50,849 nucleotides of DNA. It comes from a virus (lineage: Duplodnaviria; Caudoviricetes). Position 1 is the first letter of the stretch. The number at the start of each line of letters is the position of its first letter. The DNA lies in the IMG/VR virus record IMGVR_UViG_3300033156_000246, positions 1 through 50,849 of that record. The stretch is one strand, 5' to 3'. This document shows, in pieces, positions 3,524-27,570 of this stretch. The notes beneath the pieces were generated by a model, which saw nothing but the letters and a program-made list of their open reading frames with translations, did not search any database and was not told the origin of the DNA. The position numbers and the translations under genes were made by a program.

Positions 3524-3527
3524 TAAA

Positions 3528-3839
3528 ATGGAAAGAAAAGAAATATTGGTTGAATATCTGGATGGGTTGTTGTCGGTGGAGGGTGGTAAAATGGAAGTGG
3601 AAAAAATAGTACTGGAGATTGTAAGAGATCTGAAAAAGGTGGGGTTTAATGTTGGTATAATAGAATCAAATAGAGATACGGAAACATACATAATATCAGT
3701 GAACTACAGCAGTGCTGCGGAAGTGCAGGCGGTAGGACAGATAATAGATAGTTATTGTATGAAACACAAATTAGATCACACAGCACTGCCTGCGAATGGT
3801 ATTTTTACAGCAATAATAAAAAAATGGGAGAATGAGTAA
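3528..3839 (+). CDS. Hypothetical protein
   Basis: GAGGTGA SD, ORF track. Confidence 0.7.
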   Translation: MERKEILVEYLDGLLSVEGGKMEVEKIVLEIVRDLKKVGFNVGIIESNRDTETYIISVNYSSAAEVQAVGQIIDSYCMKHKLDHTALPANGIFTAIIKKWENE

Positions 3840-4302
3840 GATGAGGCATAAGTGTTTTGTTCTGGAGGAGATAGGTAAGTGGTCACCGACAGAGCAAAGA
3901 ATTTTTTGGTTTTACACAAATACAGAAGGAATGACCAGACTTTATACGGCATACCAACAAAAGCAAAACCAAAAACAGTATTCCAGATCAGAATGGCCGA
4001 AAGTGAAAAGTTCTGTCGAAAGAATAGAAAAAGAGGATAAAACAGTGATTGCATGGTTAAAAGACAGTGATGAGCTGGTAAAAGTTGCAAACAAGACTTT
4101 GGAGGGCATCAGAAGTAAGTACTTTTTCAGAAGGTGCAAAAGAAACATTGGGGGAACAGTATTAAGAAAACATGGCATCTCATGGGTTAGAATTGGTGAC
4201 GGAATCTTTGTCCCTACCGCAGATGGGGAAAAATATCCGGTTAGTATGATAACAGGAGTATTATTTGAGCATCAGCATCCTCATCCGTTTTCGTTACCAT
4301 AA
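3832..4302 (+). CDS. Hypothetical protein
   Basis: Coupled to upstream ORF, followed by T19. Confidence 0.7.
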   Translation: MSKMRHKCFVLEEIGKWSPTEQRIFWFYTNTEGMTRLYTAYQQKQNQKQYSRSEWPKVKSSVERIEKEDKTVIAWLKDSDELVKVANKTLEGIRSKYFFRRCKRNIGGTVLRKHGISWVRIGDGIFVPTADGEKYPVSMITGVLFEHQHPHPFSLP

Positions 4303-4321
4303 TTTTTTTTTTTTTTTTTTT
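4303..4321 (+). terminator. Poly-T terminator
   Basis: T19 directly after the stop codon. Confidence 0.7.
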
Positions 4322-4380
4322 GCTCTTTTGTGTTATTTGTTATCAACCCGAATAATTTGCGCATTTTCATAACCATAGAG

Positions 4381-4516
4381 TGAGGAGAGTAGAAGGATAA
4401 TACTCTCCTCATGCATGGCTCCGATTTGGAGACCGTGCAGAGATTAAAACGTGAGTTTAGCCATGGGAGTGACCAGCTTAAGGCTGGTAATTCGGGTTAA
4501 ATTCCCGGCACTCCCA
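4381..4516 (+). ncRNA. Structured RNA: two hairpins followed by a D-armless tRNA-like element (4465-4516)
   Basis: 11-bp hairpin 4381-4411; bulged hairpin 4412-4439; acceptor stem GGGAGTG/CACTCCC+A; 5-bp stem with loop CTTAAGG; T-arm TCGGG-TTAAATT-CCCGG. Confidence 0.65.
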
Positions 4517-4538
4517 AAGCTTGAAAAGAGGTGAGAAT

Positions 4539-5189
4539 ATGGGTTTTGAGGAGTTTAGAGATGTATTGAAAGATTTGACAGCAGAAAAAGAAATAAGGGA
4601 ACTGCTGACACAACAGGTACAGCATGCACAGCAGATAAACGGAATCGAAGAACTGTTTTACAATGTCGGTGAACTAGAGGTCATGAAAGTGGTTGGTAAA
4701 GAGGTCCTAGAGTTTTGCAATGACATGATAACCACTGTGGAAGTTATTGAGCTTGAGAACAGAATAAAAGCAATAAGCAAAGATATCGCTGAGACCAAAG
4801 CATGGATCATCACTTATGCAAAAGAGGGATTAACGAATGATGTTGAAAGACTTGCAAGACAACTTAACGAACTTGAGAATGAAAAGAAGCAATTGCAAGA
4901 GAAGCTCAAGCAGGCAAGACAAAAAGCAAAGAAGGAGAAGAAGCCTTTTGCTGAATCAGCAAAAGACATCAGAACAGAGCTCAAGCAGATTAACGAAAAG
5001 AAGAAGAAAGAATTCGAAGATAACGCTGGCACAGTAAACAGCATGGCAATTGAGAAGTTCATCGAAGTCTTTACTCCACATTATTATGAGCATTTAGCTA
5101 AGATCAAGAAGCAACAGAGAAAGGCAGAAAAGGAGAAGAAAGAAGAAAAGAAGGAAAAGAAGAAACAGGCAAAGAAGAGCAAAAAGTGA
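4539..5189 (+). CDS. Coiled-coil protein with Lys/Glu-rich tail
   Basis: GAGGTGA SD before ATG 4539; heptad-rich; KKEEKKEKKK C-terminus. Confidence 0.75.
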   Translation: MGFEEFRDVLKDLTAEKEIRELLTQQVQHAQQINGIEELFYNVGELEVMKVVGKEVLEFCNDMITTVEVIELENRIKAISKDIAETKAWIITYAKEGLTNDVERLARQLNELENEKKQLQEKLKQARQKAKKEKKPFAESAKDIRTELKQINEKKKKEFEDNAGTVNSMAIEKFIEVFTPHYYEHLAKIKKQQRKAEKEKKEEKKEKKKQAKKSKK

Positions 5190-5192
5190 ATT

Positions 5193-5711
5193 ATGTCTTT
5201 CATTTTTTCTTATTATTCTGCCTATTTTCCACGCACGGATACTTTGCTTATCAGTAAAGACAAAATAACAATAAGACAATATGCCGAGATTCTGAAAAAC
5301 CATAATCACGGCTTATATAAGCTTAAAAAGAAGTATAGGCGTTATGAGATACCATTAAACCATTTGGCAAGGACTCTCACTGAAAAACTAAACGTTAAAG
5401 TTGTCGTACTAAGAAAATATCATCGATTGACTCCTTATCAGTTTAATAATGCATCAAAAAACGGATTATATCCAAATAAGGCAATTGCATTAAGCTATAT
5501 TCTTGAAAAAGCAGGAATTAACGTTAAAACTCTGAAAACCTTCACGGATTACAGATACATCGACAAAAGAGGAAAAGAAAAGACAATCACAAAAGCTGAT
5601 AACGCAGTAATAATCAACAGTAACATAAAAATTGAGTTTATAGATCTACCGATCGGCATTACCTTTAAAATCAATGCACCCCATCAATATATCCAAAGAT
5701 TGTACCCATAA
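5193..5711 (+). CDS. Basic hypothetical protein
   Basis: ORF track; followed by T8. Confidence 0.65.
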   Translation: MSFIFSYYSAYFPRTDTLLISKDKITIRQYAEILKNHNHGLYKLKKKYRRYEIPLNHLARTLTEKLNVKVVVLRKYHRLTPYQFNNASKNGLYPNKAIALSYILEKAGINVKTLKTFTDYRYIDKRGKEKTITKADNAVIINSNIKIEFIDLPIGITFKINAPHQYIQRLYP

Positions 5712-5895
5712 TTTTTTTTCATAGCTAAGTATTAATGCTATTAGTTGACAATATAGTCTAATTGCAAATTACATATAACTTCGATCTAAACTTTTATGTC
5801 AACATATAACATTAAAATGCTTATACGCAGATACAATCAACATTAAAATTTTGTTACATAAACTTTTTCTTTTTATTTTTTTGTTTCATTTCGTT

Positions 5896-5982
5896 TGCCT
5901 CCTGTATTTTAAGGGGGCAGTTTTAAAGGGGCAGCTTATGCTGTCCCATTTTAAGGGGCTGACTTTATGCAGTCAGTCCCAT
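5896..5982 (+). promoter_or_regulatory. Three tandem G-U-containing hairpins associated with TTTTAA(A)GGGG motifs
   Basis: TGCCTCCT/AGGGGGCA; GGGGCAGC-TTAT-GCTGTCCC; GGGGCTGACT-TTATGC-AGTCAGTCCC. Confidence 0.6.
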
Positions 5983-6011
5983 GTTAAAAAATATTTTAAG
6001 GGGGTGAGTGT

Positions 6012-6284
6012 ATGGAGTCCGAAAAAAGAAGAGTTGTGAGTGTTGGTGAAAATACATATCAGGAGATTTTAAGGCAAGGCTTGGAGCATGAAATGTTGTT
6101 TAAAGAGAGAGAGTGGGAAACAAACCACAGAGGACTTGAGAGTTTAAAGGGGGCGGTGTTAATATCGGCATTCCATAGTTCAACACATTGGAAGTTGTTT
6201 TTTAGGACACCAGAAGGAAAGATACTTAGGGTAATTTTACCCGCTGATTACTTCGGCAGACCGTTTGAAGTGAAAGAGCTTTAA
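6012..6284 (+). CDS. Hypothetical protein
   Basis: GGGGTGA SD. Confidence 0.7.
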   Translation: MESEKRRVVSVGENTYQEILRQGLEHEMLFKEREWETNHRGLESLKGAVLISAFHSSTHWKLFFRTPEGKILRVILPADYFGRPFEVKEL

Positions 6285-6296
6285 AGGGGTGAAAGT

Positions 6297-6497
6297 GTGT
6301 CCGGGAGAAAAGTTGGCTACATAATTGAATTGGATGGTACAAGGTATGTGTTAATAGTACCGTCAGAAGTATTGCAAAGAACTATAAGTGACATTTGGAA
6401 AGACTGTAGTGGTGACATTGACGCATTTGAGTATACTCTACACAGAATGGGCTGTGAGATATATGACCTAATAGGTGATGTAGTTTTAAAGGGGTGA
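6297..6497 (+). CDS. Hypothetical protein
   Basis: GGGGTGA SD, GTG start. Confidence 0.65.
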   Translation: MSGRKVGYIIELDGTRYVLIVPSEVLQRTISDIWKDCSGDIDAFEYTLHRMGCEIYDLIGDVVLKG

Positions 6498-6501
6498 ACA
6501 T

Positions 6502-6810
6502 ATGAAATTAAAAATAAATTTTGAAAACAAGACTGTCACAATCGATGGTTACATGAAAAAATATAGCAAAGTTCAGTTGTTAGCCAAAGAAATTGACCGG
6601 ACAATAAGCCAGTATGCAAAAGATGAAAAGCTGCAGAGAGTAACAATAAAGCAACCATTGAAGACAGTTTTTAAGGCGGGATTGTGGGTCAGCAGACCAG
6701 AAATAGTGGCAATATACAACTGGCGATATGCACAGAACACGTATTTTATCCATGACCCAAAGCTGGAAAACATCGTTAGAAACGTACTTCTTAAAAGTTT
6801 AAAGGCTTAA
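6502..6810 (+). CDS. Hypothetical protein
   Basis: GGGGTGA SD; T8 after stop. Confidence 0.7.
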   Translation: MKLKINFENKTVTIDGYMKKYSKVQLLAKEIDRTISQYAKDEKLQRVTIKQPLKTVFKAGLWVSRPEIVAIYNWRYAQNTYFIHDPKLENIVRNVLLKSLKA

Positions 6811-6848
6811 TTTTTTTTGCTTTAAAAGCTTTTAAGGGGGTGGTTGAA

Positions 6849-7118
6849 ATGCAGTTGGTAGTAGGTCTAATCGGAAGCGTAAAAGGAGATAAGATGCAGT
6901 ATAATCAAAAAAAGAAATGGCTGAGAACTGCTGTTAAGTCGTTCATCATGGAGCGTTTTGCAGAGACTATGTTCAATGATGTCGTTTTTGCGGTAAAAGA
7001 CGATAGGTTATGGTATTTAGCATACACTGCCGGACTGCCGACTATCAATGACAAACAATTGTTCAACAGAGCTGAAGTGTTGGTCGATATTGACAAAGGC
7101 ACAATAGTGCTGAGATAA
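6849..7118 (+). CDS. Hypothetical protein
   Basis: GGGGGTGG SD before ATG 6849. Confidence 0.65.
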   Translation: MQLVVGLIGSVKGDKMQYNQKKKWLRTAVKSFIMERFAETMFNDVVFAVKDDRLWYLAYTAGLPTINDKQLFNRAEVLVDIDKGTIVLR

Positions 7119-7135
7119 GTTTAGGCTTTGTGTGA

Positions 7136-7243
7136 GAATCCTCTCAGACGCAATCTGAGGGGGTTCTCATGCAGAATTTTTTGTCACCCAATGGTTTTAC
7201 TCGTGGTTAGTGAATTTGCTCTCAGATGCAATCTGAGCTATTG
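7136..7243. repeat. Dispersed quasi-symmetric element, copy 2
   Basis: CTCTCAGACGCAATCTGAG...TTCTCAT ... CTCTCAGATGCAATCTGAGC. Confidence 0.85.
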
Positions 7244-7328
7244 TTATGTTATAGTTTAACACCCCAGATACCACCAGTCTCGTTTTAAGGGGCTGGTGGC
7301 TGGAGGCAAAAAATAAGGAGGTGATAGT

Positions 7329-7688
7329 ATGGAGCTGCAAGCTCGGTTTGTAGTGGAGTATGAGTTTGAGCCAGATAGTAGTATGAAGTGTAGGGCAACA
7401 GTAAAGCTATATCTACCAACAGAGCCAAACACAGGAGACATCGCCAAAGTTCTCATTGACCCGGATACCAATATATTCGGAAGTGCACTTCGTTCAGTAT
7501 GGGGATTCTACAGTAACGGATATAGATACAGCCGGTATACTCTGAAAGCCAAGACATGGGATGAGCTTGAAAGCAAAATCCATGATCTCATGGATGAAAC
7601 AGTGAGTAAACTCAGAGCTGTAAGAGCAATGAACGAAATCACAGAAGAGAAAAAGCCAAGAGATAAAGAGGTTGTATTTCCTATTTAA
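7329..7688 (+). CDS. Hypothetical protein
   Basis: GGAGGTGA SD. Confidence 0.75.
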   Translation: MELQARFVVEYEFEPDSSMKCRATVKLYLPTEPNTGDIAKVLIDPDTNIFGSALRSVWGFYSNGYRYSRYTLKAKTWDELESKIHDLMDETVSKLRAVRAMNEITEEKKPRDKEVVFPI

Positions 7689-7709
7689 TTTTTTAAGTTG
7701 GGTGGTAGT

Positions 7710-8027
7710 ATGTTGTGGGCTGAAGTTAGGAAAAAGAGAGAGTACCAGCCTCAGGTTGGGGCTGTTGACAACACCTTGCTTGGTGGGGTAGTTGTTAGAG
7801 AAAAAAACCCTTTTAAAGGGGTCTCCATGTCAGTAGAGAAGTACTTGGTTAAAGTCGATAGTGAGAACAAATACGTGCTGTGGAACTTCAAGAACTTGGG
7901 TATAGTGGTAAAAGCCAAGTTGATTGATTGGAACAGTGATGAGCAGTATCCGGAAACTGCATTGAAGCCAATATCACATGAACAGTTTGAAAACATAATC
8001 AAAAAACTTGAGGTGAAGAAGTTATGA
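7710..8027 (+). CDS. Hypothetical protein
   Basis: GGTGGT SD before ATG 7710. Confidence 0.6.
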   Translation: MLWAEVRKKREYQPQVGAVDNTLLGGVVVREKNPFKGVSMSVEKYLVKVDSENKYVLWNFKNLGIVVKAKLIDWNSDEQYPETALKPISHEQFENIIKKLEVKKL

Positions 8028-8449
8028 AAGCAGACAAAGATGTTCTAAAGACACTTATAGCAGGCTTAGAGAATGCATTGGAGTGCTTGAAAAATGATAT
8101 GAAATATTACATCGAAAGTATAAAAGAAACTCGTGCTGTAGAGGACGTCATGCATCTCAAACAACAGCTACTTATAGACTGGCTCAGAAATATGCCAATG
8201 GGTACTGATGAGTGCTACTTCTGTATTCTCTATGATGACGAGTGTGAAAGATGTATATATGCTGAGCATCATGGTATTTGTGCTACGAGTTCTAAAACAG
8301 ACCTTTATACTGAATTGGTAAAACTAATTGACAAATACAGCGATAGTATGGATGACTGGTCAATAATCGATACATTCAAGGACGCACTGATCATAGCAAT
8401 CCAAAAGAAATATTACAAAGGTGAAGAGTATGGAAACGACAAAGATTAG
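8024..8449 (+). CDS. Hypothetical protein with Cys cluster
   Basis: CYFC...CERC...HGIC. Confidence 0.7.
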   Translation: MKADKDVLKTLIAGLENALECLKNDMKYYIESIKETRAVEDVMHLKQQLLIDWLRNMPMGTDECYFCILYDDECERCIYAEHHGICATSSKTDLYTELVKLIDKYSDSMDDWSIIDTFKDALIIAIQKKYYKGEEYGNDKD

Positions 8450-8870
8450 ATTGGTCAACTTAACACCACACAATGTAACACTCATTTTAAAGGGCGGTGA
8501 GCAGCATTCAATACCACCATCCGGGATTGTAGCACGAGTAACGACAAAGCAGGAAACCGTAGAGCTGATTGAGTTAGAAACCGATAGAATTATTGCAACA
8601 GTACCAGTGGTCAAATCAGAGTTTGCAGAAGTGCATGGACTGCCATTAGCATGTGAGAACTGCAAACGATATGACGAGTGTGAGCTGTACTTCAAAGAAA
8701 AGCAAATCTGTGGTTTCCAAGAGCCAGAAGAGTACTACATTGTCAGCTCACTGGTAGCTATGGCTATGCATGGACGAAGGGATATTGTAGCTCCAGATAC
8801 CTCACCTAACGGTGTAGTCAGAGATGAATATGGAAACATTATAGGTGTTAAGAGGTTTCAGAAGTGGTAA
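8430..8870 (+). CDS. Conserved viral protein (NLTPH family) with Cys-rich insert
   Basis: LVNLTPH N-terminus, YIVSSLVA...RRDIVAP, RDEYGNIIG motifs. Confidence 0.7.
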   Translation: METTKIRLVNLTPHNVTLILKGGEQHSIPPSGIVARVTTKQETVELIELETDRIIATVPVVKSEFAEVHGLPLACENCKRYDECELYFKEKQICGFQEPEEYYIVSSLVAMAMHGRRDIVAPDTSPNGVVRDEYGNIIGVKRFQKW

Positions 8871-9157
8871 ACATGGTTGCTATAAAAGATGCTAGAATTC
8901 GTGTCAGAATTATAGAAGATGAGCTGGTCATTTCTCTCTGCGGAAGACGACGGAAGTATAACTACCAAGACCATATTTTTAAGGTCTGTTCAACCAAAGA
9001 TCCACAGCTAATAGAGGAATTTATACAGAAATTCGGACTTGGTGAATTTAAATTGGGTAATTGCCGGGACTATGGATTTCTTCTTGACAAATACCACTCA
9101 CATCCAATATACTGGTTTATATTTAGAAGTGGTGCTAGCAAATGGAAGTTTGGGTGA
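8864..9157 (+). CDS. Hypothetical protein
   Basis: ORF in operon. Confidence 0.6.
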   Translation: MVNMVAIKDARIRVRIIEDELVISLCGRRRKYNYQDHIFKVCSTKDPQLIEEFIQKFGLGEFKLGNCRDYGFLLDKYHSHPIYWFIFRSGASKWKFG

Positions 9158-9166
9158 GGTGATAGA

Positions 9167-9538
9167 ATGGGGGATTTGTATTGTAAAAAGTGTGGTGAGC
9201 CTTGGGAAGCTGCTGGTGTATTGCCAGCACTTGGTGGTAGAGAAGATGAGGCAGATATGACAAAAAAAGAAGCAGAGAGATTCATGAGGGGTGAAGGCTG
9301 TCCATCTTGTGGCTTTGGTCAATACTGTCCACTGTGCAAAGGAACTGGTGAAATAGACGAAGAGGAAGCCAAGTGGTGGGGTGAAGAAGCCGAACCCATT
9401 GACATAAGAGATGACGTCATGTATTTCAGATGTCCCAAGTGCGGTGGAACTGGAAAACCAAAAGGCAGTGATGAGCTCTACTACTCCGGACTTGTAGATG
9501 TTGATGGAGAAGTGGATGTTTTGGACTACATCTTTTAA
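9167..9538 (+). CDS. Zinc-finger protein (CxxCxGxG repeats)
   Basis: CKKCGEPW, CPSCG, CPLCKGTG, CPKCGGTG. Confidence 0.75.
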   Translation: MGDLYCKKCGEPWEAAGVLPALGGREDEADMTKKEAERFMRGEGCPSCGFGQYCPLCKGTGEIDEEEAKWWGEEAEPIDIRDDVMYFRCPKCGGTGKPKGSDELYYSGLVDVDGEVDVLDYIF

Positions 9539-11570: not shown

Positions 11571-11948
11571 GTGGTGGAAAATTTGGAGGTGATAGATTTG
11601 AGTGAGCATAATATCGTTTTGGAAATTCCTCTCTGTGAACGAGAAATTAGAGATAGACTTAGAAAAATATATTGGAAATTTACTGAAATCTGGGATGGAC
11701 TTTTAAGCGGCTATGAGCCCTTCTTCGACGAGTATGGAAACCAGTGGGACATGCCTTATGTCGTCAAACCAAACAACGGGCAGGTGGTGATAACCTTCTA
11801 CGACGAAGACATCCCTGAGTTCATCGACCCCGAAGACCCCCAGATGCTGGACATGATCTACGATGCTCTAACTTACTCCATACTTGGCTATCTTGGTCTC
11901 GATGAGCAACAGGTAGATGTCTATGTTCCGATGTCCCATCTGTTATAG
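11571..11948 (+). CDS. Acidic hypothetical protein
   Basis: ORF in operon; D/E-rich. Confidence 0.65.
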   Translation: MVENLEVIDLSEHNIVLEIPLCEREIRDRLRKIYWKFTEIWDGLLSGYEPFFDEYGNQWDMPYVVKPNNGQVVITFYDEDIPEFIDPEDPQMLDMIYDALTYSILGYLGLDEQQVDVYVPMSHLL

Positions 11949-12819: not shown

Positions 12820-12973
12820 GACGTGGTATAAGGGACACCACATAGCACAGAACAAGAACGAAGGGGTGTGGATTATTAAGGGGTTGTTTATTGACGAAGT
12901 AGTGAGGTTAGATAGCCTGTTTGATGTGTTTGAGTATATCGATAAGAAGATTGAGGAGAGAAAGAAAAGGTGA
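12812..12973 (+). CDS. Hypothetical protein
   Basis: AGGTGA SD. Confidence 0.55.
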   Translation: MFETWYKGHHIAQNKNEGVWIIKGLFIDEVVRLDSLFDVFEYIDKKIEERKKR

Positions 12974-12977
12974 TAGT

Positions 12978-13184
12978 ATGGGGATTTATGTAATAGCTGA
13001 GTATGATGATGGAAAAGTTGAGAGAAAGGAGGCTGAGAATGATTTCCACGCACGCAATATGGCATATGCTGCAATGTTTATATGTAGGGAAGATGGAAAA
13101 ACGCCTACAAGAGTATCTATAGTGTTTGACTTTAAAGATGGTAAAGGAGTGATTTTGTATGGTGATGACGATGAGTGCACTTGA
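12978..13184 (+). CDS. Hypothetical protein
   Basis: AGGTGA SD before ATG 12978. Confidence 0.55.
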   Translation: MGIYVIAEYDDGKVERKEAENDFHARNMAYAAMFICREDGKTPTRVSIVFDFKDGKGVILYGDDDECT

Positions 13185-13618: not shown

Positions 13619-13644
13619 AGCACCTCATCCCAACCTCCACTCAA

Positions 13645-13750
13645 ACATCCTCTCAGACGTAATCTCAGCCATTCTGATGAAGAATTTCATCGACCCATAT
13701 GTAATAACACTTCTGATGTGAATTTCCTCTGAGAGCTAATCTGAGCTATA
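13645..13750. repeat. Dispersed quasi-symmetric element, copy 3
   Basis: CTCTCAGACGTAATCTCAG...TTCTGAT ... CTCTGAGAGCTAATCTGAGC. Confidence 0.85.
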
Positions 13751-13774
13751 CCTGTGACATAGCATACCATATAG

Positions 13775-14455
13775 GTGAATGTGATGATGTTCAATATACT
13801 CAAGACAGCTAAAGACTTCGGTATACACTGGACACTTAGAAAATTGCTGCTCAATTATTCAGTAGATAAATTTTACAACAAACCAAACAAGCTTTTAAAG
13901 GAGCTTGCTGAGGCTCAAGCTGTATTGAGATTTATTGAAAAGGCAAGAAAAGCTGATGTAATCTACGACCTTGCGTGTGGACATGGTTTTGTAGCAGCAT
14001 CCAACGCTCTGAGATACCCAAATAAGCTGGTTATTGGTCTTGACCTAAAACAACGTGAAGACTGGTTCAGATATTATCCCATACAAAATCTTCTGATGGT
14101 AGAGGCAAATATGTATGAGTTCAACTTTGATACCTTCAAACCAGACTTTATCTACGCTGTTCATCCCTGCCGCTCTCTTGCAGTCCACTGTATTGACATA
14201 GCGGCAAAATACGACGCCAAGATAGTCCTAATGCCATGCTGTGAAGACCTGAAATACATTCGAAGACTCTTTGACAACCATGATACTGTTTACAAATTCT
14301 TAGCAACTGAAATCTCCAAAGATAGAGCGAGATACATTAACTGGTGTGCGTCACTGGCGATGTATATAGAATCTCTTGGTTACACTGTAAAAGTTCATAG
14401 ACCAAAATTTTTATATAACTATACTCCAAAGGACATTATACTGTACGGGAGGTGA
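13775..14455 (+). CDS. Class I SAM-dependent methyltransferase (HxC...PCC type, possibly RNA-directed)
   Basis: Motif I YDLACGHG, GLD, AVHPCRSLA, LMPCC. Confidence 0.8.
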   Translation: MNVMMFNILKTAKDFGIHWTLRKLLLNYSVDKFYNKPNKLLKELAEAQAVLRFIEKARKADVIYDLACGHGFVAASNALRYPNKLVIGLDLKQREDWFRYYPIQNLLMVEANMYEFNFDTFKPDFIYAVHPCRSLAVHCIDIAAKYDAKIVLMPCCEDLKYIRRLFDNHDTVYKFLATEISKDRARYINWCASLAMYIESLGYTVKVHRPKFLYNYTPKDIILYGR

Positions 14456-14459
14456 TTGT

Positions 14460-14609
14460 GTGAAAGTACCAGTTAAGATATATTTTCCAAGAGCATTGTA
14501 CGACCAGATTAGTGAGACAGCCAAGCAGAATGGTGAAAAGTTCAGCGACACCGTAATTCGACTAATAGAGACTGCTTTAAAGGGCGGTAAGAAAAAGGGT
14601 AAGACATGA
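14460..14609 (+). CDS. Ribbon-helix-helix DNA-binding protein (49 aa, not in ORF track)
   Basis: GGAGGTGA SD; MKVPVKIYFPRALYDQISETAKQNGEKFSDTVIRLIETAL; ATGA overlap with next gene. Confidence 0.7.
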   Translation: MKVPVKIYFPRALYDQISETAKQNGEKFSDTVIRLIETALKGGKKKGKT

Positions 14610-15214
14610 CTGTGTTAGTGGGCTTTGCTGGAGCGAGTGGCAGTGGTAAAACTACACTCATGAACGAGCTACATGAGGAACTGGACAAAAGAGGCTACGA
14701 AGTCGGTGTGGTCAGTGAAGTAACCAGAACTCTATTCAAATCGTATAATTGCAGCAGCATGGATGAGCTGAGACAAAGCGGAGACCTTATGGACTTCCAA
14801 ACAGATATACTGGAGATGCAGTACCTGAAGGAAAAACAGGCTATGGAAATCTACGATATAGTGCTATCTGATAGAACTATCCATGACAACGTGGCTTATC
14901 TACTTATCCACCACAACAAGGACTTGAGTGGACTTATCAACTACTTCACAATCTACAACACCTTTAGACTTTTCCACAACTACGACTTAATCTTCTACTG
15001 TCCCCCACTATACCACGTGGACATTAGAGACGGCTTTAGAACCGAAGAGGACATTAAATCCAGACCCTTACAGGACGCCATAATCAACATCCTACTGGAG
15101 GCGTCTAACAACAAAGTGGAAAAAGTCCCTGCCTTAGTCCTCAGCAGCCCCTCTCACGAGATAAAACTTCGTACTGAATTTTGTTTACGTAAGGTGCTGG
15201 AGTTGATAGAATGA
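14606..15214 (+). CDS. P-loop nucleotide/polynucleotide kinase-like NTPase (NadR/AAA_28-like)
   Basis: GASGSGKTT Walker A, SDRTIHD, YDLIFY, DGFR. Confidence 0.8.
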   Translation: MTVLVGFAGASGSGKTTLMNELHEELDKRGYEVGVVSEVTRTLFKSYNCSSMDELRQSGDLMDFQTDILEMQYLKEKQAMEIYDIVLSDRTIHDNVAYLLIHHNKDLSGLINYFTIYNTFRLFHNYDLIFYCPPLYHVDIRDGFRTEEDIKSRPLQDAIINILLEASNNKVEKVPALVLSSPSHEIKLRTEFCLRKVLELIE

Positions 15215-15417
15215 AACCTGTATATATTGTCGTCGTATTGCAAGATGCTCCTTTTCCAGCAAATGTAGAAGCATTTGCTACATATGATGAAGCAAAGGAA
15301 TTTGCAGATAATGCCAAGATACAGTATGAGAGCAATAGAGTGTATATTTACGAGAGACATATTTGATAACTCTACTGTAAATACTGTAAAGTACTGTAAA
15401 TTAGGAGAGGTGGTATA

Positions 15418-15696
15418 ATGAGTGAAGAGGTATTTTTTGTGAAGTATATCTGCACGAATTGTGGTGCTGAGTGGATAGAGAAATTTAAACCAGATACGAG
15501 AATAATACAGGATTGGAAGGGCGTTGTTGTGATAGAGAACTACAGTAGTGTGTTTGGCAAGAGGAATATCTATCGTGTGAGATGTAATGTGTGTAAGATA
15601 CAAGACGGTGTTAGGGTAGTAGAAAGAACACCACTTAAAGGGGAGTTGATGGACAGTGAAGGACGATTTGACGATAGAAGAAATAATCAAGTATGA
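15418..15696 (+). CDS. Zinc-ribbon protein
   Basis: CTNCG...CNVC. Confidence 0.65.
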   Translation: MSEEVFFVKYICTNCGAEWIEKFKPDTRIIQDWKGVVVIENYSSVFGKRNIYRVRCNVCKIQDGVRVVERTPLKGELMDSEGRFDDRRNNQV

Positions 15697-15787
15697 AGGT
15701 TGGTGTGCAGTTGGATTTGAGTGTAAAGACTGTCCAGATAGGGATACATGCAAGCCAGATGAGTTTCCATTTGAGGAGGACTGATGA

Positions 15788-16018
15788 GTGATGAAGCTAA
15801 TCCCATGTAAGTGGCTTGACTACGAATCTGAGTACGACGCAGAACTTAGGACTTGTGAACCTGATTTTCCTGAGGTTAGATACTGGTACAGACATAACGT
15901 ACCATATAAAGGTGCACCAAGGAGAGTACAGTTCTGCAAAAAGCGTGGCAGAATCAACGGCATTTTTCAGTGTTATACAGGAGAGATGAGTTGCTATGAA
16001 CCAGCTGAGGAGAGCTGA
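15788..16018 (+). CDS. Cys-rich hypothetical protein
   Basis: GAGGAGG SD. Confidence 0.6.
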   Translation: MMKLIPCKWLDYESEYDAELRTCEPDFPEVRYWYRHNVPYKGAPRRVQFCKKRGRINGIFQCYTGEMSCYEPAEES

Positions 16019-16129
16019 TGAGCGATGGGTAAATGTAAAAACTGTCCGTATGAGTTATACCGAATTGTAAGGATTCAGGAAAAGCTACCTAGTGCTTGTG
16101 ATGTTTGTGTGTTTAAGGAGGATGAATGA

Positions 16130-17029
16130 ATGGAGTCAAAACTGCTCTCTTTTCCAAAAGTAAACCGTATAGACAAGCCAGCATTAAAGGATGTGTTGGA
16201 CGGTTTTGTATACGTTTTGGAGAAAGTAGATGGCAGTCAGTTCAGGATTCTAATAGACCCAAAGACTCAGACGTGGGATTGTGGGAGTAAGTCAGTAGAT
16301 GGTAAGGAAAATATAGACTACAAGATGTTTGAGGTTGCCATTAAAAGGGCTGAAGAAGTTGCACAGAGGTATTTCGAGAATTTTGATGACCCAATTGTTC
16401 TATACTGTGAGTATCTAAAAGAGCCAAAACATAACACACTCCAGTATGCACATGTTCCGAAGAACAACTTGTATCTGTTTGCAGCTTATTCCTTGTCAAA
16501 AGAAGATGAGATAGTACCAGAAGGCTTGGAGTATATTGCACGTAAGTTGGAGATAGACCCACCAAATGTTCTTGATTGCGGAGAGTTCAACGTGGAAGAC
16601 TTAGAGAAGTTCTTAGACACCAAGAGCTATCTTGGAAATGAGTTAGTCGAAGGTATTGTTTTGGTAAATACATCCAAGCTTGCACTGCCACCATACGATG
16701 CTTTGAACTGGAAGAAGAGAGCTAAGCTGGTCAGAAAGGAGTTCCAAGAGTTGAATAACCAAGAGTGGAAACAAAAGAAGAAACCACTTGAGACAAGATT
16801 CATTGAGACGTTTGTAAACGAAAATAGACTCCATAAAGTGATAAACAAGCTAAAAGAAAGTGGTGCTATTAAAGGGGAGATGAGTGATTTGCCGTTGATA
16901 TTTGAAGAATATTGGAAGGACTTACTTGAGGAAGAGTCAGACACAATAGCACAGATGACTGTTGATTACTTCAGACGCAGAGGTCAAAAGATTATCACAA
17001 AGTGGTATAAAAATATTGTTAAAAGGTGA
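16130..17029 (+). CDS. ATP-dependent RNA ligase (Rnl2-like)
   Basis: Motif I EKVDGSQ, LYCEY, YLF, EGIVL, AKLVRKEF. Confidence 0.85.
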   Translation: MESKLLSFPKVNRIDKPALKDVLDGFVYVLEKVDGSQFRILIDPKTQTWDCGSKSVDGKENIDYKMFEVAIKRAEEVAQRYFENFDDPIVLYCEYLKEPKHNTLQYAHVPKNNLYLFAAYSLSKEDEIVPEGLEYIARKLEIDPPNVLDCGEFNVEDLEKFLDTKSYLGNELVEGIVLVNTSKLALPPYDALNWKKRAKLVRKEFQELNNQEWKQKKKPLETRFIETFVNENRLHKVINKLKESGAIKGEMSDLPLIFEEYWKDLLEEESDTIAQMTVDYFRRRGQKIITKWYKNIVKR

Positions 17030-17754: not shown

Positions 17755-17964
17755 ATGAGCACTGGCTATACAGTATGGGAACTTAGTGATGAGCAGCTTG
17801 AGGAGTTGTATAATGCTGCAGATGAGGTAGTTCTTGAATACTGTAGTGAGTGTACGTTCAAAGGAGATGTGTGTCGTTATTTCTTTAGATCAATATGTCC
17901 AGCACTATGGAAAGCCATAAGAAGTAGAATTCACGAAGAAATCTCCAAAATGGTGGAAAAATGA
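17755..17964 (+). CDS. Cys-rich small protein
   Basis: CSEC...C...CP; AGGTGA SD. Confidence 0.6.
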   Translation: MSTGYTVWELSDEQLEELYNAADEVVLEYCSECTFKGDVCRYFFRSICPALWKAIRSRIHEEISKMVEK

Positions 17965-18145
17965 GGTGGTGTGAGTATGGGATGCTTTCTTGATGACTTG
18001 CTTGAAAAGCTTGTCCAGAATTTAGACAACACTGAGAAGGCAAAGGAAATTGTCGAACAGATACGTGAAGCATGTATTGAATGCAATCGACGCTGGATGG
18101 CAACGATGATGTACAGCTCCAACTGATGGTTAGACCACACTGCAG

Positions 18146-18271
18146 ACATCCTCTGAGAGCTAATATAACCCACTTCTCATCCACTTTATGAACGGCACAT
18201 ATGTTGTTATACCTTTGGATTTTAGAATGCGTCAGAAGCCGTCATATTGCATCTCAGAAGGTGTTTATATA
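18146..18271. repeat. Dispersed quasi-symmetric element, copy 4, abutting a TATA box
   Basis: CTCTGAGAGCTAATATAAC...TTCTCAT ... TCAGAAGCCGTCATATTGCATCTCAGAAG then TTTATATA. Confidence 0.85.
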
Positions 18272-18301
18272 TCACGAAAAGTAAACGTGAGGTGATGTCA
18301 T

Positions 18302-18775
18302 ATGTGTGAGAAAGCGAGAGAGATAAAGTTTAGAGCTTAGGACAAGAAAAATATGGAGATGGCATATGATATAGTAATCGGAGAAGACTTCTTTGCCACC
18401 GGTTGGTTTGTAGATGATTACGGAGATATTGTCGCAATTTCAGATGACAATTGGAGAAACAGATACGTGATTATGCAGTACACTGGTCTAAAAGATAAAA
18501 ACGGAAAAGAAATTTATGAACACGATATAATCCGCATAGAAAGATGGACACACGAATATATATGCCACAAGTGTGGTTATCGTAGATCCAGTGACGCTCT
18601 GGCAGTTGTAGTTTGGTTAGATGACAATGATATTTACCCAGCATGCTGGGCAATGAAAATTGTGAAAACATCTGCAAGACATACAATGAACAACGTCTAT
18701 CCTATAGACGTAAGCGATTTAAAGGACATCGAAGTAGTTGGTAACATATATGAAAACCCAGAGGTGGTGACATGA
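18302..18775 (+). pseudogene. YopX-family gene with in-frame TAG at the conserved Trp
   Basis: SD plus MCEKAREIKFRA*DKK; MQYTGLKDKNGKEIYEHDI; EVVGNIYENP. Confidence 0.75.
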
Positions 18776-19996: not shown

Positions 19997-20174
19997 TGTA
20001 GTATGATAGATGTTCGGAAGAAAGAATGTTGGATAGAAAAGGGTAAAGTGTGTGATGTAAACATGGCTTATTCAGAAATATCGTCAGCAGACTGTATTGC
20101 GTGTCAGTTGGCTAAGCTTCGTAAGACATTGGAATCTGTGATGAAAGATATGGTGGCTCTGGACTAAGACTCAT

Positions 20175-20300
20175 ACATCCCTTCAGAGCTAATCTAAGGC
20201 ACTTCTCATCAACTTTACGACTCAACCATATGTGATTATACCTTTGAAACACAGACTTCATCAGAACGGCTCAGATTGCATCTCAGAGGGTATTTATATA
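20175..20300. repeat. Dispersed quasi-symmetric element, copy 5, abutting a TATA box
   Basis: TTCAGAGCTAATCTAAGG...TTCTCAT ... TCAGAACGGCTCAGATTGCATCTCAGAGG then TTTATATA. Confidence 0.85.
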
Positions 20301-20339
20301 CTACCAAAAGTTTATATACTCTAAGGGGGTGTGGCAGCT

Positions 20340-21035: not shown

Positions 21036-21603
21036 TATGAGTTACTCAGTTAATGACATTTTCAAGGAGACAAAGTACGTGATATCCAATCGCATAAAGA
21101 CAATAAAAACCAACACACGAAAACTTGCAAGGAGAATAGCTGTGGACTTGGGTAGAGATTTGTTAGATGCTGAGTGTTTCACAATGACTGACTACTACTA
21201 TCTCAAAGCGATGACTAGCGTAAAAGACCTGACACTGGATGAACTTGAAGAGCACATAGACAGCATGTTTGAGAGAGTGCAAGATGCGTTTATCCACGTT
21301 GGCATTGAGAACGGACAGATATACAAGAAGACAAGCAGCTGGTCGGTTTTGTACTACCTGTGGCTGGTGTTGGACAAACATAAGCTGTATCTTGTGCGGG
21401 ATATTGTCAGTTTACTACCAGAGTATTTGGTCACAAGTCCACAGTCATTCACAAACAGACTGAGGTTCTTAAACACACACAACGCATTGGTCAGGGTAAA
21501 CATCAATAAGAGACTCGTGTATTGGGGTTTACCAACTGTAGTGGACGAACTGGAAGACAAGTATGAAAAGGTAGAAGGACAGTTGATATACATTTGCAGG
21601 TGA
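21028..21603 (+). CDS. Hypothetical protein, possible winged-helix DNA-binding
   Basis: Position in replication block; C-terminal wHTH-like pattern. Confidence 0.55.
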   Translation: MSDMSYSVNDIFKETKYVISNRIKTIKTNTRKLARRIAVDLGRDLLDAECFTMTDYYYLKAMTSVKDLTLDELEEHIDSMFERVQDAFIHVGIENGQIYKKTSSWSVLYYLWLVLDKHKLYLVRDIVSLLPEYLVTSPQSFTNRLRFLNTHNALVRVNINKRLVYWGLPTVVDELEDKYEKVEGQLIYICR

Positions 21604-21608
21604 CGGAT

Positions 21609-22109
21609 ATGGATCGTGAGCTGAAGTTTAGAGTATGGGACAAAACACAGAAAGCTATGATACATGCAGATGATTTTATACATGCGGCTTCAGAAAACAA
21701 ACTATGTAAAGAAGTCTGTCCAGCGATAGTAGATGGCATTTTAGATTGTGATGAGTGGTATCCTGTATGTTGGCATAAATTGACATACTTGATATATCTT
21801 TATTCTAAAAAGGACGACTACATTATCATGCAATACAGTGGTCTAAAGGATATGAATGAAGTGGACATATACGAAGGAGATATAGTGTTTTACCACTTTC
21901 CAGCATCTTTGGAAGAGATATATAAACACTACAAATTTGATAACTATATATTCAGTGGATACATGGTTGTAGAATACAGCAAAAACCATGCAGCATTTAT
22001 TGCTAAGACTAAAGATGGATTTTGGAGGCCACTTGCACATAACCACCAGTTTATGGAAGTAGTTGGAAACATTTTTGAAAATCCAGATCTGTATGAGGAG
22101 GTGATGTGA
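21609..22109 (+). CDS. YopX-family protein
   Basis: MDRELKFRVWDK, MQYSGLKD, IYEGDIV, EVVGNIFENPDL. Confidence 0.85.
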   Translation: MDRELKFRVWDKTQKAMIHADDFIHAASENKLCKEVCPAIVDGILDCDEWYPVCWHKLTYLIYLYSKKDDYIIMQYSGLKDMNEVDIYEGDIVFYHFPASLEEIYKHYKFDNYIFSGYMVVEYSKNHAAFIAKTKDGFWRPLAHNHQFMEVVGNIFENPDLYEEVM

Positions 22110-24673: not shown

Positions 24674-24875
24674 CGAAAGAAATTTATTTTTTTAGAGGTG
24701 TTGCGTTGAGTTCTGATGGATTTGTGTGGGTTAGAAAATGTCCAATGAGTTGGAAGGATGAAAGATACGTATCTGTTCACAGAGTGTGCTTTGCATGCAA
24801 TTATTGGCTTGGTTGTAAGAATAATAAGCCAATATTGATAAGAAAAGAGGAATTATACTGATGGGGGGTTGTGAA

Positions 24876-26033
24876 ATGGATAGGTGTAAGCTGTATCTTG
24901 GAGATGCTTTGGAAGTTCTAAAAGAGTTGCCAGAAAATTCTGTTGATTCCGTTGTTACAGACCCGCCATACGGGCTCAGGTTCATGAATCAGAAGTGGGA
25001 TTACGACGTTCCAAGTGTTGAGCTGTGGAAAGAGGTTTTGAGAGTTTTGAAACCAGGTGGCCATTTACTTTCATTTTTCGGAACGAGGACATATCACAGA
25101 GGGGTAGTGAACATAGAGGATGCAGGGTTTGAGATTAGGGATATGATTCAATGGCTCTATGGAAAGGGCTTCCCGAAAGGCATGGACATAAGCAAAGCAA
25201 TAGACAAGGAGTTTGGGAAGTTAGAAGAGAAAAGAGTTATCGGAATTTCTCAAAAGCAACCAGCAGGGTTTATTAGGCATGGTAGAACGGATGAAGAGGT
25301 CTTTTTCGGAACAGATGAACATAGAACACCTGCATTGATAACCAAACCAGCAACACCAGAAGCAGAGCAATGGCAAGGATGGAACACCTCGCTTAAGCCT
25401 GCTAATGAGCCTATTGTTTTAGCGAGAAAACCGATTAGCGAAAAGAATATTGCTCAGAATGTGCTTAAGTGGGGAACTGGTGGGTTGAACATAGATGCCT
25501 GTCGTATTCCTGTAAACACTCCACGCCCCTTGATTATTCTCAAAGGTGGGGTCAGCAAGTATGGTATTTATGGTCACGGTGTTCATAACAGCAAACATGG
25601 TGGTTATACTATGCAAGATCGCTTTCCAGCCAATGTCATTCTCGACGGGGAAGTGGCTAAGATGCTGGATGAACAAGCACCTAACGCTTCCCGCTTCTTC
25701 TACTGTGCTAAAGCTGGTAGAGATGAGAGATTTGCATACTGTAGAACATGTGATGAAGTGATACCACAAAAAGACGCCAATAAGCACAAAGGACACGACA
25801 TGGTATTCCATCCAACTGTAAAACCACTCAAACTTGTGGAGTATCTCGTCAAGCTTGTGACTCCTCCAAATGGAACGGTTCTCGATCCTTTTTTGGGAAC
25901 AGGAACTACCGCCGTAGCAGCACTGAATTGTGGATACAGGGTGATTGGAATTGAGATTAATGAAGAGTATTTCCGTATAGCAAAGCACAGAGTGAGTAGC
26001 ATATCTACATCCATTACTGACTTTTTAAAGTAG
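24876..26033 (+). CDS. DNA amino-methyltransferase (beta class, DPPY; probably m6A)
   Basis: VTDPPYG, HPTVKP, VLDPFLGTGTT, IGIE. Confidence 0.92.
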   Translation: MDRCKLYLGDALEVLKELPENSVDSVVTDPPYGLRFMNQKWDYDVPSVELWKEVLRVLKPGGHLLSFFGTRTYHRGVVNIEDAGFEIRDMIQWLYGKGFPKGMDISKAIDKEFGKLEEKRVIGISQKQPAGFIRHGRTDEEVFFGTDEHRTPALITKPATPEAEQWQGWNTSLKPANEPIVLARKPISEKNIAQNVLKWGTGGLNIDACRIPVNTPRPLIILKGGVSKYGIYGHGVHNSKHGGYTMQDRFPANVILDGEVAKMLDEQAPNASRFFYCAKAGRDERFAYCRTCDEVIPQKDANKHKGHDMVFHPTVKPLKLVEYLVKLVTPPNGTVLDPFLGTGTTAVAALNCGYRVIGIEINEEYFRIAKHRVSSISTSITDFLK

Positions 26034-26043
26034 TGGTGACATA

Positions 26044-26358
26044 ATGAAAGTGGTGTACATTTGCTCACCATTTAAAGGTCGCAAAGAGAATATGGCAAAC
26101 GCAATAAGGTATTGTAGAAAAGTTGTCGATATGGGACATATTCCAATAGCACCCCACGTATACTTTCCTCAATTCATGGATGACAACAATCCATTAGATA
26201 GAAGAAAAGCATTAGAGATGAACAAGAGACTGATGGAGTTCTGTGACGAACTCTGGGTTTTTGGAGATGATATAACTGAAGGAATGGAAAAAGAAATCGA
26301 ATACTTCAAAAAGATTAAAGGCAACAATAAGGTCAAACAAGTTACATCAATCAAATAG
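26044..26358 (+). CDS. Nucleoside 2-deoxyribosyltransferase-like small protein
   Basis: VYICSPF, PIAPH, CDELWVFG, TEGMEKEI. Confidence 0.75.
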   Translation: MKVVYICSPFKGRKENMANAIRYCRKVVDMGHIPIAPHVYFPQFMDDNNPLDRRKALEMNKRLMEFCDELWVFGDDITEGMEKEIEYFKKIKGNNKVKQVTSIK

Positions 26359-26379: not shown

Positions 26380-27570
26380 TTGGAATGTGTGGTCAAACCA
26401 GAAGAAATGGACGGTCTGCCAGTAAACAAAATCATAAATGGGGATGTTTTAGAAGCTTTGAAAAGGCTGCCATCAGATTCTATTGATTGTATTGTCACTT
26501 CACCACCATATTGGAGTCTCAGAGATTACGGAGTAGAAGGACAGATAGGTCTCGAACCGACACTTGATGAATACCTTGACAAACTTCTTCAAGTTACAAA
26601 AGAGCTTAAGCGGATTCTGAAACCAACTGGCGTTATGTTTTGGAATCATGGAGACAATTACAGTGGGTCACTCAGAGGATTCGATAAGAATGGAAAGAAC
26701 TATGTCAAATCCGAAATACAATTGGGAAATAAAGGTTCATTCGTTATGCCACCAGATTGGAACAAAATAAACATTCCAAGAAAATCACTTTGTCTTCAAG
26801 CCTCACGCTTAGCTATTCGTATGATTGATGAACAAGGCTGGATTCTCCGCAACGACATCATATGGCACAAACCAAATCACATGCCAGAGAGTGTTAAAGA
26901 TAGATTCACAAAAGCATATGAGCACGTTTTTATGTTTGTGAAGAAAGAAAAGTATTGGTTTGACTTGGATGCGGTGAGAGAGCCGCATTTAAACAAATAT
27001 AATACTTGTGCCTCGAGGCGAGAAGATTGTTCAACTAATCAATATGCAAAATCTGCTCACGGGCCAGAAGACTACCATCCACTTGGTAAAAACCCCGGTG
27101 ACGTCTGGGTTATCAACACTGAACCATTTCCCGAAGCTCACTTTGCAGTTTTCCCGACTAAGTTGGTTGAACGTTGTATTTTGGCTGGTTGTCCAGAGTG
27201 GATTTGCAAGAAGTGTGGGAAACCAAGAGAGAGGATTGTTGAGAAAATCGGTAGAGTACAACAACATTGGGCTCCGGGGACAAGCACTAAAGCAGAACTT
27301 GCTAAAGGACGACATGGATCAAGTAGTACTCTTGTAACCGGATATAAATTCATTTATCAAACTATCGGTTGGACAGACTGCGGTTGCAACGCTGGTTGGG
27401 AATCAGGCATAGTGCTTGACCCATTTTTAGGTTCAGGAACAACAGCACTCGTAGCACTGAAATTGGGAAGGAATTTTATTGGTATAGAGCTAAATGAAGA
27501 ATACTGCAAGATGGCTTACAACAGAATCAGAGACCATCTGAATCAACAAAGACTAACAGAATATCTGTAA
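26380..27570 (+). CDS. DNA amino-methyltransferase (beta class, SPPY; probably m4C)
   Basis: VTSPPYW, IWHKPN, HFAVFP, VLDPFLGSGTT. Confidence 0.92.
   Translation: MECVVKPEEMDGLPVNKIINGDVLEALKRLPSDSIDCIVTSPPYWSLRDYGVEGQIGLEPTLDEYLDKLLQVTKELKRILKPTGVMFWNHGDNYSGSLRGFDKNGKNYVKSEIQLGNKGSFVMPPDWNKINIPRKSLCLQASRLAIRMIDEQGWILRNDIIWHKPNHMPESVKDRFTKAYEHVFMFVKKEKYWFDLDAVREPHLNKYNTCASRREDCSTNQYAKSAHGPEDYHPLGKNPGDVWVINTEPFPEAHFAVFPTKLVERCILAGCPEWICKKCGKPRERIVEKIGRVQQHWAPGTSTKAELAKGRHGSSSTLVTGYKFIYQTIGWTDCGCNAGWESGIVLDPFLGSGTTALVALKLGRNFIGIELNEEYCKMAYNRIRDHLNQQRLTEYL

Follow-up and report, generated by a model that had tools for sequence, protein, structure and literature searches.

Clustered Genes for an Rnl2-Like RNA Ligase, a TRM13-Like Methyltransferase and a Nucleoside Kinase-Like Protein in a Probably Archaeal Tailed Virus May Act Separately

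RESULTS

Genes for an Rnl2-like RNA ligase, a TRM13-like methyltransferase (MTase) and a P-loop kinase lie within 3.3 kb (13775-17029) on the plus strand of IMG/VR record IMGVR_UViG_3300033156_000246, a complete virus genome with direct terminal repeats whose whole 50,849-bp sequence was analyzed here (referred to as the window). The initial annotation had interpreted these genes as one module that heals, seals and immunises RNA. However, this was only partly borne out: the kinase groups with those of the small-molecule type, no 3′-phosphatase is linked to the cluster, and the three genes do not co-occur across their families. On balance, and with limited confidence, we favor the reading that the ligase, an RNA methylase and a nucleoside/nucleotide kinase are three separately acting accessory enzymes and not one integrated machine. 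The ligase and the MTase may both keep tRNA usable under host attack, as independent functions, and the 3.3-kb stretch would be a piece of the dense early/middle gene block of the virus. The open reading frames (ORFs) of the MTase, of a small ribbon-helix-helix (RHH) protein, of the P-loop protein and of the ligase were all confirmed in the ORF list, on the plus strand and at their annotated coordinates. As judged from sequence, the genes of the cluster are more than chance ORFs, because each has homologues that keep the catalytic motifs.

The P-loop protein groups with small-molecule kinases

The P-loop protein (14606-15214, plus strand, 202 amino acids [aa]) contains the motifs GASGSGKTT and SDRT. 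It matched the Pfam family model AAA_28 (71.4 bits against a cut-off of 27; E = 1.3e-19), to which 28 of its 30 hits in the Atlas also belonged. AAA_33, to which the kinase portion of the viral Pnkp proteins belongs, scored below its cut-off (18.5 bits). Relatives of the protein are labelled thymidylate kinase in PHROGs, and the depositors of its nearest isolate homologue used the same name. When a profile of 8 sequences was compared with the PDB, thymidylate kinases were matched at 8e-7 and Lactococcus lactis NadR at 5.6e-6, the latter over the whole length, including the stretch DDGFR, which falls in the lid of the ribosylnicotinamide-kinase (RNK) domain by the ranges in PMC7221760. The AF2 model (pLDDT 91.1) gave the same picture in VIA-align. 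Its best structural match was the NadR RNK domain 6gye (Z 20.4, rmsd 2.2, 175 residues), followed by 8x7f (Z 19.8) and then by deoxynucleoside kinases (dNK) and thymidylate kinases (TMPK) at Z 16-18; the tRNA-directed P-loop proteins PSTK and Kti12 were at Z 11-12. Foldseek gave a result in agreement with this. Pnkp and Clp1 were absent among the best 50 VIA-align matches and the ∼50 Foldseek matches listed for the model, and no window ORF matched a hidden Markov model (HMM) built from a viral Pnkp cluster at E <= 1.

By sequence and fold, the P-loop protein is not a polynucleotide kinase of the Pnkp/Clp1 kind; it groups with the small-molecule nucleoside/nucleotide kinases (NadR-RNK, dNK and TMPK). 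The P-loop kinase with a DR motif that was initially described is real, but the repair role given to it is not supported by this grouping. The matches come close to a dNMP kinase, the outcome that the initial annotation had itself set against its proposal, and RNA ends are an unlikely substrate. The protein aligns with the NadR RNK domain (6gye and 8x7f) at Walker A, at the aspartate of Walker B and at the DDGFR motif of the lid. However, the window kinase differs from NadR in standing alone, without an NMN adenylyltransferase (NMNAT) domain, and dNK and TMPK structures match it nearly as well. Phage NadR-like enzymes belong to the NARP3 pathway (PMC13464706); in contrast to NadR and NARP3 loci, no NMNAT or PnuC-like transporter was detected in Pfam scans of the window, which covered 49 ORFs. 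A role of the kinase in NAD salvage was put aside for this reason (no NMNAT [CTP_transf_like] or PnuC family among these ORFs).

The gene neighborhoods of the kinase in other viruses point to replication and nucleotide metabolism. The 93 neighbor ORFs in 9 viral loci included primase, PolB, dCMP deaminase, 3′-phosphoadenosine 5′-phosphosulfate (PAPS) reductase, ERCC4 and Cas4 genes, and none of them encoded an RNA ligase, Pnkp phosphatase, NMNAT or PnuC. The closest viral relative is 52% identical over residues 3-103, and its ORF of 125 aa seems to have been shortened by truncation or a frameshift; in contig L082 (region 3358-9333), it lies between Cas4-like and ERCC4-HhH genes and downstream of an archaeal/eukaryotic-type primase large subunit. 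A search of species genomes with the kinase alignment gave nothing. Judging from its fold, its motifs and these neighbors, the kinase would supply nucleotides for replication.

The methylase is TRM13-like rather than Hen1-like

The class I S-adenosylmethionine (SAM)-dependent MTase was annotated at 13775-14455 (plus strand, 226 aa). Its likelier start is the ATG at 13784, which follows AGGTGA and gives a protein of 223 aa, because the Atlas record and P0001, a 223-aa protein 99% identical to it, begin there. The motifs reported initially were all present: DLACGHG as motif I, HPC after strand β4 and PCC after strand β5, the two strands spanning residues 125-129 and 149-153, respectively, in the AF2 model (pLDDT 93.4). 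The loops after these strands are active-site loops in class I methyltransferases, and we take the combination of His-x-Cys after β4 and Cys-Cys after β5 to be typical of the Methyltransf_32/TRM13-like family. Residues K42, E43, E46, H130, C132, P154, C155 and C156 were invariant in 35 of 35 sequences.

Several searches pointed to the same family. Pfam PF13679 (Methyltransf_32) was matched at E = 8.4e-6 (26.3 bits, just under the gathering score of 27), P0001 carries PF13679 in a precomputed table, and the family was found on 23 of the 30 Atlas feature hits (best structural cluster, TM 0.84), some of the PF13679 clusters that hold the MTase also carrying TRM13 hits. The two best matches in BFVD were giant-virus proteins of the TRM13-like kind (5.4e-9 and 2.2e-6), and all others had E values of at least 2.2e-5. 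No Hen1 family was matched in Pfam at E <= 1. As initially proposed, and as far as its sequence tells, the MTase is a non-Hen1 enzyme of the Methyltransf_32/TRM13-like kind, whose known relatives methylate tRNA ribose. It shares with Trm13/Methyltransf_32 proteins (PF13679 and PF05206) the class I fold and the His-x-Cys and Cys-Cys motifs, but it is a minimal version of 223-226 aa with an N-terminal helical extension only. Other searches were less informative: NCBIfam gave nothing, fold searches of the PDB with the model returned a flat list of generic class I methyltransferases (Z 15.5 to 12.7), the profile and its C-terminal half found no diagnostic sequence match in the PDB, and an alignment of the close clade found nothing in viral contigs or species genomes. 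A reading of the HPC and PCC motifs as marks of a pyrimidine-C5 methylase would rest on the presence of RumA/RlmCD among the matches, and it was not adopted. An exhaustive search of 1.84 billion representative proteins found 84 relatives at E <= 1e-3, and the only 4 at E <= 1e-10 were all metagenomic proteins. The clade is small, mainly viral, rare and almost wholly uncharacterised.

Trm13 is the 2′-O-methyltransferase of tRNA position 4, and it acts on this internal position and not on broken ends. By analogy, it is plausible that the target of the MTase is RNA, probably the 2′-O of tRNA ribose, and our best guess is that internal positions rather than broken ends are modified. Mutant data are reported to indicate that most tRNA Gm in Pseudomonas aeruginosa is made by the PF13679 protein PA14_68100, which is described as a tRNA Gm/Cm enzyme of internal tRNA positions (bioRxiv 10.1101/2024.07.01.601603). 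If the window MTase resembles these relatives in activity, it would methylate RNA, probably the tRNA ribose 2′-OH, and so block cleavage there.

The wider MTase family showed no RNA-repair theme across 27 viral loci, RlaP being present in 2 and weak ligase-like hits in 2. A separate observation on this wider family of ∼200-aa proteins is that, in 10-11 related phage contigs (L109, L111, L112, L114 to L116, L118, L119, L125, L132 and L135), the MTase gene lies in a conserved block with PrkA, DUF444 and SpoVR genes, a yeaG/yeaH/ycgB-like trio, and a DnaJ-domain gene.

The ligase resembles T4 Rnl2 and its family has ties to RNA repair

The ligase (16130-17029, plus strand, 299 aa) matched the Pfam RNA_ligase family PF09414 (4.5e-11) and, over its full length, PHROG 548, "RNA ligase" (6.5e-20). 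A word-based search found 23 proteins, 22 of which were aligned. Motif I, EKVDGS, aligns with KIHG of T4 Rnl2, and its lysine, K32, was kept in 22 of 22 sequences. Also kept were E94, F117, E174-G175 and K199, which we take to be motifs III, IIIa, IV and V, respectively. The best match of the ligase profile in the PDB was T4 Rnl2 (2hvq; E = 6.5e-7), with residues 21-270 aligned to residues 25-301, so that the alignment runs into the C-terminal domain, up to chain residue 301; Pab1020, NgrRnl and a DNA ligase scored worse. The match to Pfam T4_Rnl2_C was weak (E = 0.074), a single-sequence search of the PDB gave no relative, and NCBIfam gave nothing. The protein appears to share with T4 Rnl2 the KxDG motif, motifs III, IIIa, IV and V and a helical C-terminal domain after them, although identity is only ∼15-20%. 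One departure is that the residue aligned with its second motif-V lysine is a valine, V201, which is invariant in the family and is followed by R202. The initial assignment stands: on these alignments, the protein is predicted to be a two-domain Rnl2-like RNA ligase.

The neighborhoods of this ligase family were examined in viral contigs, in which a pattern scan found 179 relatives; 80 loci were kept, each with ±8 kb of flanking sequence. Pnkp (kinase plus HAD) was present in 9 of the 80 loci, always downstream and within 2.3 kb, RtcB in 6 and RlaP in 4, which together make 16 distinct loci. In some viruses, then, the family is genuinely linked to RNA repair. Replication genes were as common as repair genes (PolA in 16 loci and DnaB in 14), and an RNase H-like exonuclease was found in 15, in 10 of these within 1 kb. 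The family is viral and is often near Pnkp, RtcB or RlaP, whereas the window virus has no Pnkp partner for its ligase. In the haloarchaeal virus HGTV-1, two Rnl2-family ligases have been reported (PMC8651126). By homology, Lys32 would be adenylylated by ATP, the AMP would be passed to a 5′-phosphate, and attack by a 3′-OH would seal the break, the substrate probably being folded or duplex RNA that has been broken, for example, a cleaved tRNA.

End-healing enzymes were not detected

Sealing of this kind would need 3′-OH and 5′-phosphate ends, and the virus appears to have no recognisable means to make them. Among the 49 window ORFs, no Pnkp, HAD, HD, 2H, RtcB, RlaP, NMNAT or PnuC family was detected with Pfam, and no phosphatase for the healing of 3′ ends was detected in the interval 13.2-17.3 kb. 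Cys-phosphatase and 2H motifs, sought across the window with regular expressions, turned up in shadow ORFs only. Host enzymes or suitable nucleases would therefore have to supply the ends. A calcineurin-type metallophosphoesterase, pointed out initially as lying elsewhere in the genome (32387-33214, minus strand), is real; its score is weak (22.4 bits with Pfam Metallophos, E = 1.9e-4, the cut-off being 21.5), and its translation contains the readable catalytic motifs GDLHYG, GDVID, GNHE and AHFH. It has no match in the PDB or NCBIfam, and jackhmmer found homologues in 3 of the 80 ligase loci. The gene is at the end of the tail-gene block, 15 kb from the cluster and on the opposite strand, and there is no evidence linking it to the cluster. 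A tRNA mimic, also invoked initially, was not recovered: no tRNA or transfer-messenger RNA gene was predicted by ARAGORN anywhere in the window, and nothing in Rfam was matched at its gathering threshold.

The three gene families do not travel together

Co-occurrence was sought in both directions. Among the 80 ligase loci, the kinase family was found in none and the MTase in one, at a marginal score (E = 8.5e-4), and the 13 viral kinase loci contained neither the ligase (0/13) nor the MTase (0/13). Whole records of 50 of the 80 ligase loci were also covered, 21 of these records being at least 90% complete. In them, the kinase was found once, by a marginal match to the P-loop only, and the MTase not at all (0/50). 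The kinase, Pnkp and RtcB were each absent from the loci of the wider MTase family (0/27), the whole records of which gave one strong ligase hit (1/27, ∼20 kb from the MTase) and one weak one (1/27). A weak ligase hit was present in 1 of the 13 whole kinase records; in this ligase search of the MTase and kinase records, the window itself was recovered as a positive control. Single-protein scans of viral contigs with the MTase, the kinase and the ligase gave no relatives. The window is the only locus examined in which all three genes were found together.

Observations in favor of coordination

Some observations weigh against separate action. The MTase, RHH and kinase ORFs are translationally close-packed, with a 4-nt gap between the MTase stop and the RHH start and a 4-nt overlap between the RHH and kinase ORFs. 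The substrate chemistry is also not in conflict with an RNA kinase, a nucleoside kinase acting on the ribose 5′-OH just as an RNA 5′-kinase does.

The MTase's own clade, which was reached by a metagenome scan (contigs L095, L096, L097 and L098), provides further examples. Two of these contigs, L095 and L096 (MTase 84% identical), are too short to inform, but both of the informative distant loci keep one partner each (2/2), compared to 40 other loci, none of which gave a strong ligase hit within ±8 kb. In L097 (MTase 44% identical, 42-kb contig), a PF09414 ligase is encoded 2 kb upstream of the MTase (HMM, 2.5e-40), although it is only 25% identical to the window ligase; no kinase was found within ±10 kb of the MTase. 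In L098 (MTase 43% identical, 13-kb contig), an AAA_28 kinase is encoded 0.6 kb downstream of the MTase (HMM, 6.4e-20), in the same order as in the window. This kinase is 29% identical to the window kinase and departs from it at several positions where the family of the window kinase does not vary. The L098 contig contains no ligase; 1.5 kb upstream of its MTase-kinase pair, at 867-1595, it encodes a Cys-type DSP-PTPase ("Swiss Army Knife," PF22784, E = 2.1e-7) with the loop CCEGGHGRTG. L098 is a syntenic relative of the window, with three further genes in common, so its MTase-kinase order may be simply inherited. The co-occurrence that the initial annotation had named as a check is absent in the wider families and present, for one partner at a time, in L097 and L098. 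As an unrelated observation, L097 encodes a ThiF-family (E1-like) protein at 14006-14764, 3.4 kb downstream of its MTase.

A complex prediction for the MTase and the kinase, a check that the initial annotation had named, scored 0.38, compared to 0.00 for the best of 3 controls, a result classed as "weak support." At least 90% of contacts were common to the runs, and the pLDDT of the partner was at least 82. In the calibration of the tool, 58 of 80 solved complexes passed the mark, as did 2 of 110 mismatched pairs; at scores <=0.60, only 7 of the 80 solved complexes pass, along with both of the passing mismatches, and the tool itself warns that a pass at such a low score is more likely to be false than true, except for a pairing that was likely from the start.

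DISCUSSION

The same genes could be parts of an integrated system, in which an AAA_28 5′-OH RNA kinase, a TRM13-like enzyme that methylates the junction 2′-O and Rnl2-like sealing would heal, immunise and close broken RNA, the phosphatase coming from the distant metallophosphoesterase or from the host. We consider this improbable, and the residual weight that it keeps is due mainly to L097, L098 and the weak complex score (0.38 versus 0.00). The kinase, MTase and ligase genes do lie within 3.3 kb on one strand, 16 of the 80 viral loci link the ligase family with genes of RNA repair, the MTase is TRM13-like, partners recur beside the MTase clade (the ligase in L097; the kinase and a DSP-PTPase in L098), and the bacterial three-protein Pnkp1-Rnl-Hen1 complex is a precedent (PMC4411300). 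However, the kinase is nearest to NadR-RNK, dNK and TMPK, is missed by the Pnkp HMM and has no Pnkp or Clp1 among the matches listed; no relative has all three genes, L097 lacking the kinase (±10 kb) and L098 the ligase (13-kb contig); the wider families show no co-occurrence; and the cluster is without a phosphatase, the metallophosphoesterase being 15 kb off on the other strand beside tail genes. The L098 example is itself weakened by synteny, through which its gene order was possibly inherited, and by the alterations of its kinase at family-invariant residues. TRM13 acts on internal tRNA positions, not on broken ends. The same is reported for PA14_68100 (bioRxiv 10.1101/2024.07.01.601603). 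A bolder form of the idea, which we hold to be quite doubtful, is that a clade of archaeal tailed viruses has a new end-healing and immunising kit, in which the AAA_28 5′-OH RNA kinase would be complexed with a minimal TRM13-like 2′-O-methylase and joined, depending on the lineage, by an Rnl2-like ligase (window and L097) or a Cys-type phosphatase (L098). It would likewise surprise us if the MTase and the kinase formed a conserved two-gene cassette working on one small molecule or RNA end, for instance, in the synthesis or salvage of methylated nucleosides or nucleotides, with the ligase independent of them. The tight packing of the MTase, RHH and kinase genes, the MTase-kinase order in L098 (43% and 29% identity, respectively), the weakly supported complex (0.38 versus 0.00) and the nucleoside-kinase fold would all suit such a cassette, but the pair was seen in only one further locus, a syntenic relative, the kinase is in 0 of 27 wide-MTase loci and the MTase in 0 of 13 kinase loci, nuclease genes flank the closest viral relative of the kinase and no MTase is beside it, and the TRM13-like relatives suggest RNA rather than free nucleotides as the target.

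Two further alternatives concern single parts of the cluster. It is unlikely, though more open to argument, that the ligase serves viral DNA replication or repair, at nicks with an RNA 3′-OH strand or at DNA nicks, rather than tRNA repair. Replication genes are the commonest recognisable neighbors of its family (PolA in 16, the exonuclease in 15 and DnaB in 14 of the 80 loci), its single match in the isolate collection carries the annotation "ATP-dependent DNA ligase," the 49 window ORFs scanned include no further ligase, and an invariant valine stands where T4 Rnl2 has the second motif-V lysine. Against this, T4 Rnl2 is the best solved relative, C-terminal domain included; Pfam and PHROG both label the protein as an RNA ligase; Pnkp, RtcB or RlaP is nearby in 16 of the 80 loci; and in the window the ligase gene is at least 6 kb from the recombination genes. 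Very improbable, finally, is a toxin-antitoxin-like pair of a zeta-toxin-type kinase and a small DNA-binding antitoxin. It would explain the 4-nt overlap between the RHH stop and the kinase start and a weak P-loop match of the kinase to Zeta_toxin (E = 0.0017, below the cut-off), but the full-length fold and the motifs are NadR-RNK/dNK-like, the ORFs preceding the L098 kinase gave no RHH match, and a Pfam tally of the other viral loci of the kinase revealed no similar RHH-kinase pairing.

On paper, the cluster resembles the bacterial Pnkp-Hen1 and Pnkp1-Rnl-Hen1 systems, in which kinase, ligase and MTase genes are close together and, in the latter, the ligase is a separate protein as in the window (PMC4411300). 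However, the window kinase is AAA_28/NadR-like and has no fused phosphatase, and the MTase is TRM13-like instead of Hen1. Nor was a conserved operon found, and the sole sign of a complex is the weak MTase-kinase prediction. All three genes are additions to known families.

Genome context of the cluster

The virus is tailed and probably archaeal; an archaeal host is likely because of the ERCC4-HhH gene and because an archaeal/eukaryotic primase large subunit is among the kinase neighbors in relatives. Isolate phages gave no match, either in a DNA search with the window or with the portal protein. Portal, capsid, tail-tube and tail genes make up a minus-strand block at 50.5-32.4 kb (Pfam scan). 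The plus-strand block, at ∼3.5-31 kb, consists of densely packed small genes, all co-directional, and includes an AAA_24 ATPase, two N6/N4 DNA methylases, a Cas4-like nuclease and an ERCC4-HhH nuclease.

Within the cluster, the RHH (Arc/CopG-like) ORF (14460-14609, plus strand, 49 aa) exists as annotated, but its assignment as a regulator is weak (Pfam RHH_5, E = 0.015; Arc-like PHROG 7906, E = 4.6e-4). Between the kinase and the ligase, four small plus-strand ORFs (51, 92, 42 and 76 aa) occupy 15211-16018. Two of them are Cys-rich and zinc-ribbon-like, with weak Pfam matches (DUF7204, E = 0.0029; zinc ribbons, E of at least 0.1). The repeat copy noted initially just upstream of the MTase was also found: a 52-nt member of repeat family D3 at 13718-13769 (plus strand; repeat search). 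Other copies are at 7210-7261 and 13641-13692, so that two stand in tandem directly before the MTase gene; the copies are 62-73% identical to the reference copy. The D3 repeat contains an internal inverted repeat, CTCTGAGAG...TCTGAG, and may act as a site of regulation or mark the end of a transcript.

Other features of the early gene block were also recorded. Many early genes have a strong extended Shine-Dalgarno-like box, AGGAGGTGAT, followed after 2-5 nt by ATG (3397-3421, 5993-6017, 7310-7334, 11578-11602, 12959-12983 and 17958-17982). A 140-nt direct repeat (18143-18282 and 20172-20311; 75% identity) recurs with a spacing of 2 kb. Two YopX-family paralogues (18353-18775, Pfam 4.8e-19; 21594-22109, Pfam 2.3e-20) have a 35-nt repeat in common at their 3′ ends (18728-18762 and 22053-22087). 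A DUF7768 gene (26044-26358, Pfam 2.1e-36) lies between the two N6/N4 DNA methylase genes (24861-26033 and 26380-27570).

Implications

If the bold reading were true, a nucleoside-kinase fold and a non-Hen1 methylase would for the first time be the basis of an RNA repair system, which would also be a rare case of virus-encoded RNA repair in archaea. On the ordinary reading, the value lies in annotation: the known tRNA-directed genes of archaeal tailed viruses would gain an Rnl2-like ligase and a TRM13-like methylase, and the "kinase" beside these two should not be taken for Pnkp. A viral enzyme that forestalls tRNA-cutting defences by methylating tRNA ribose would merit testing.

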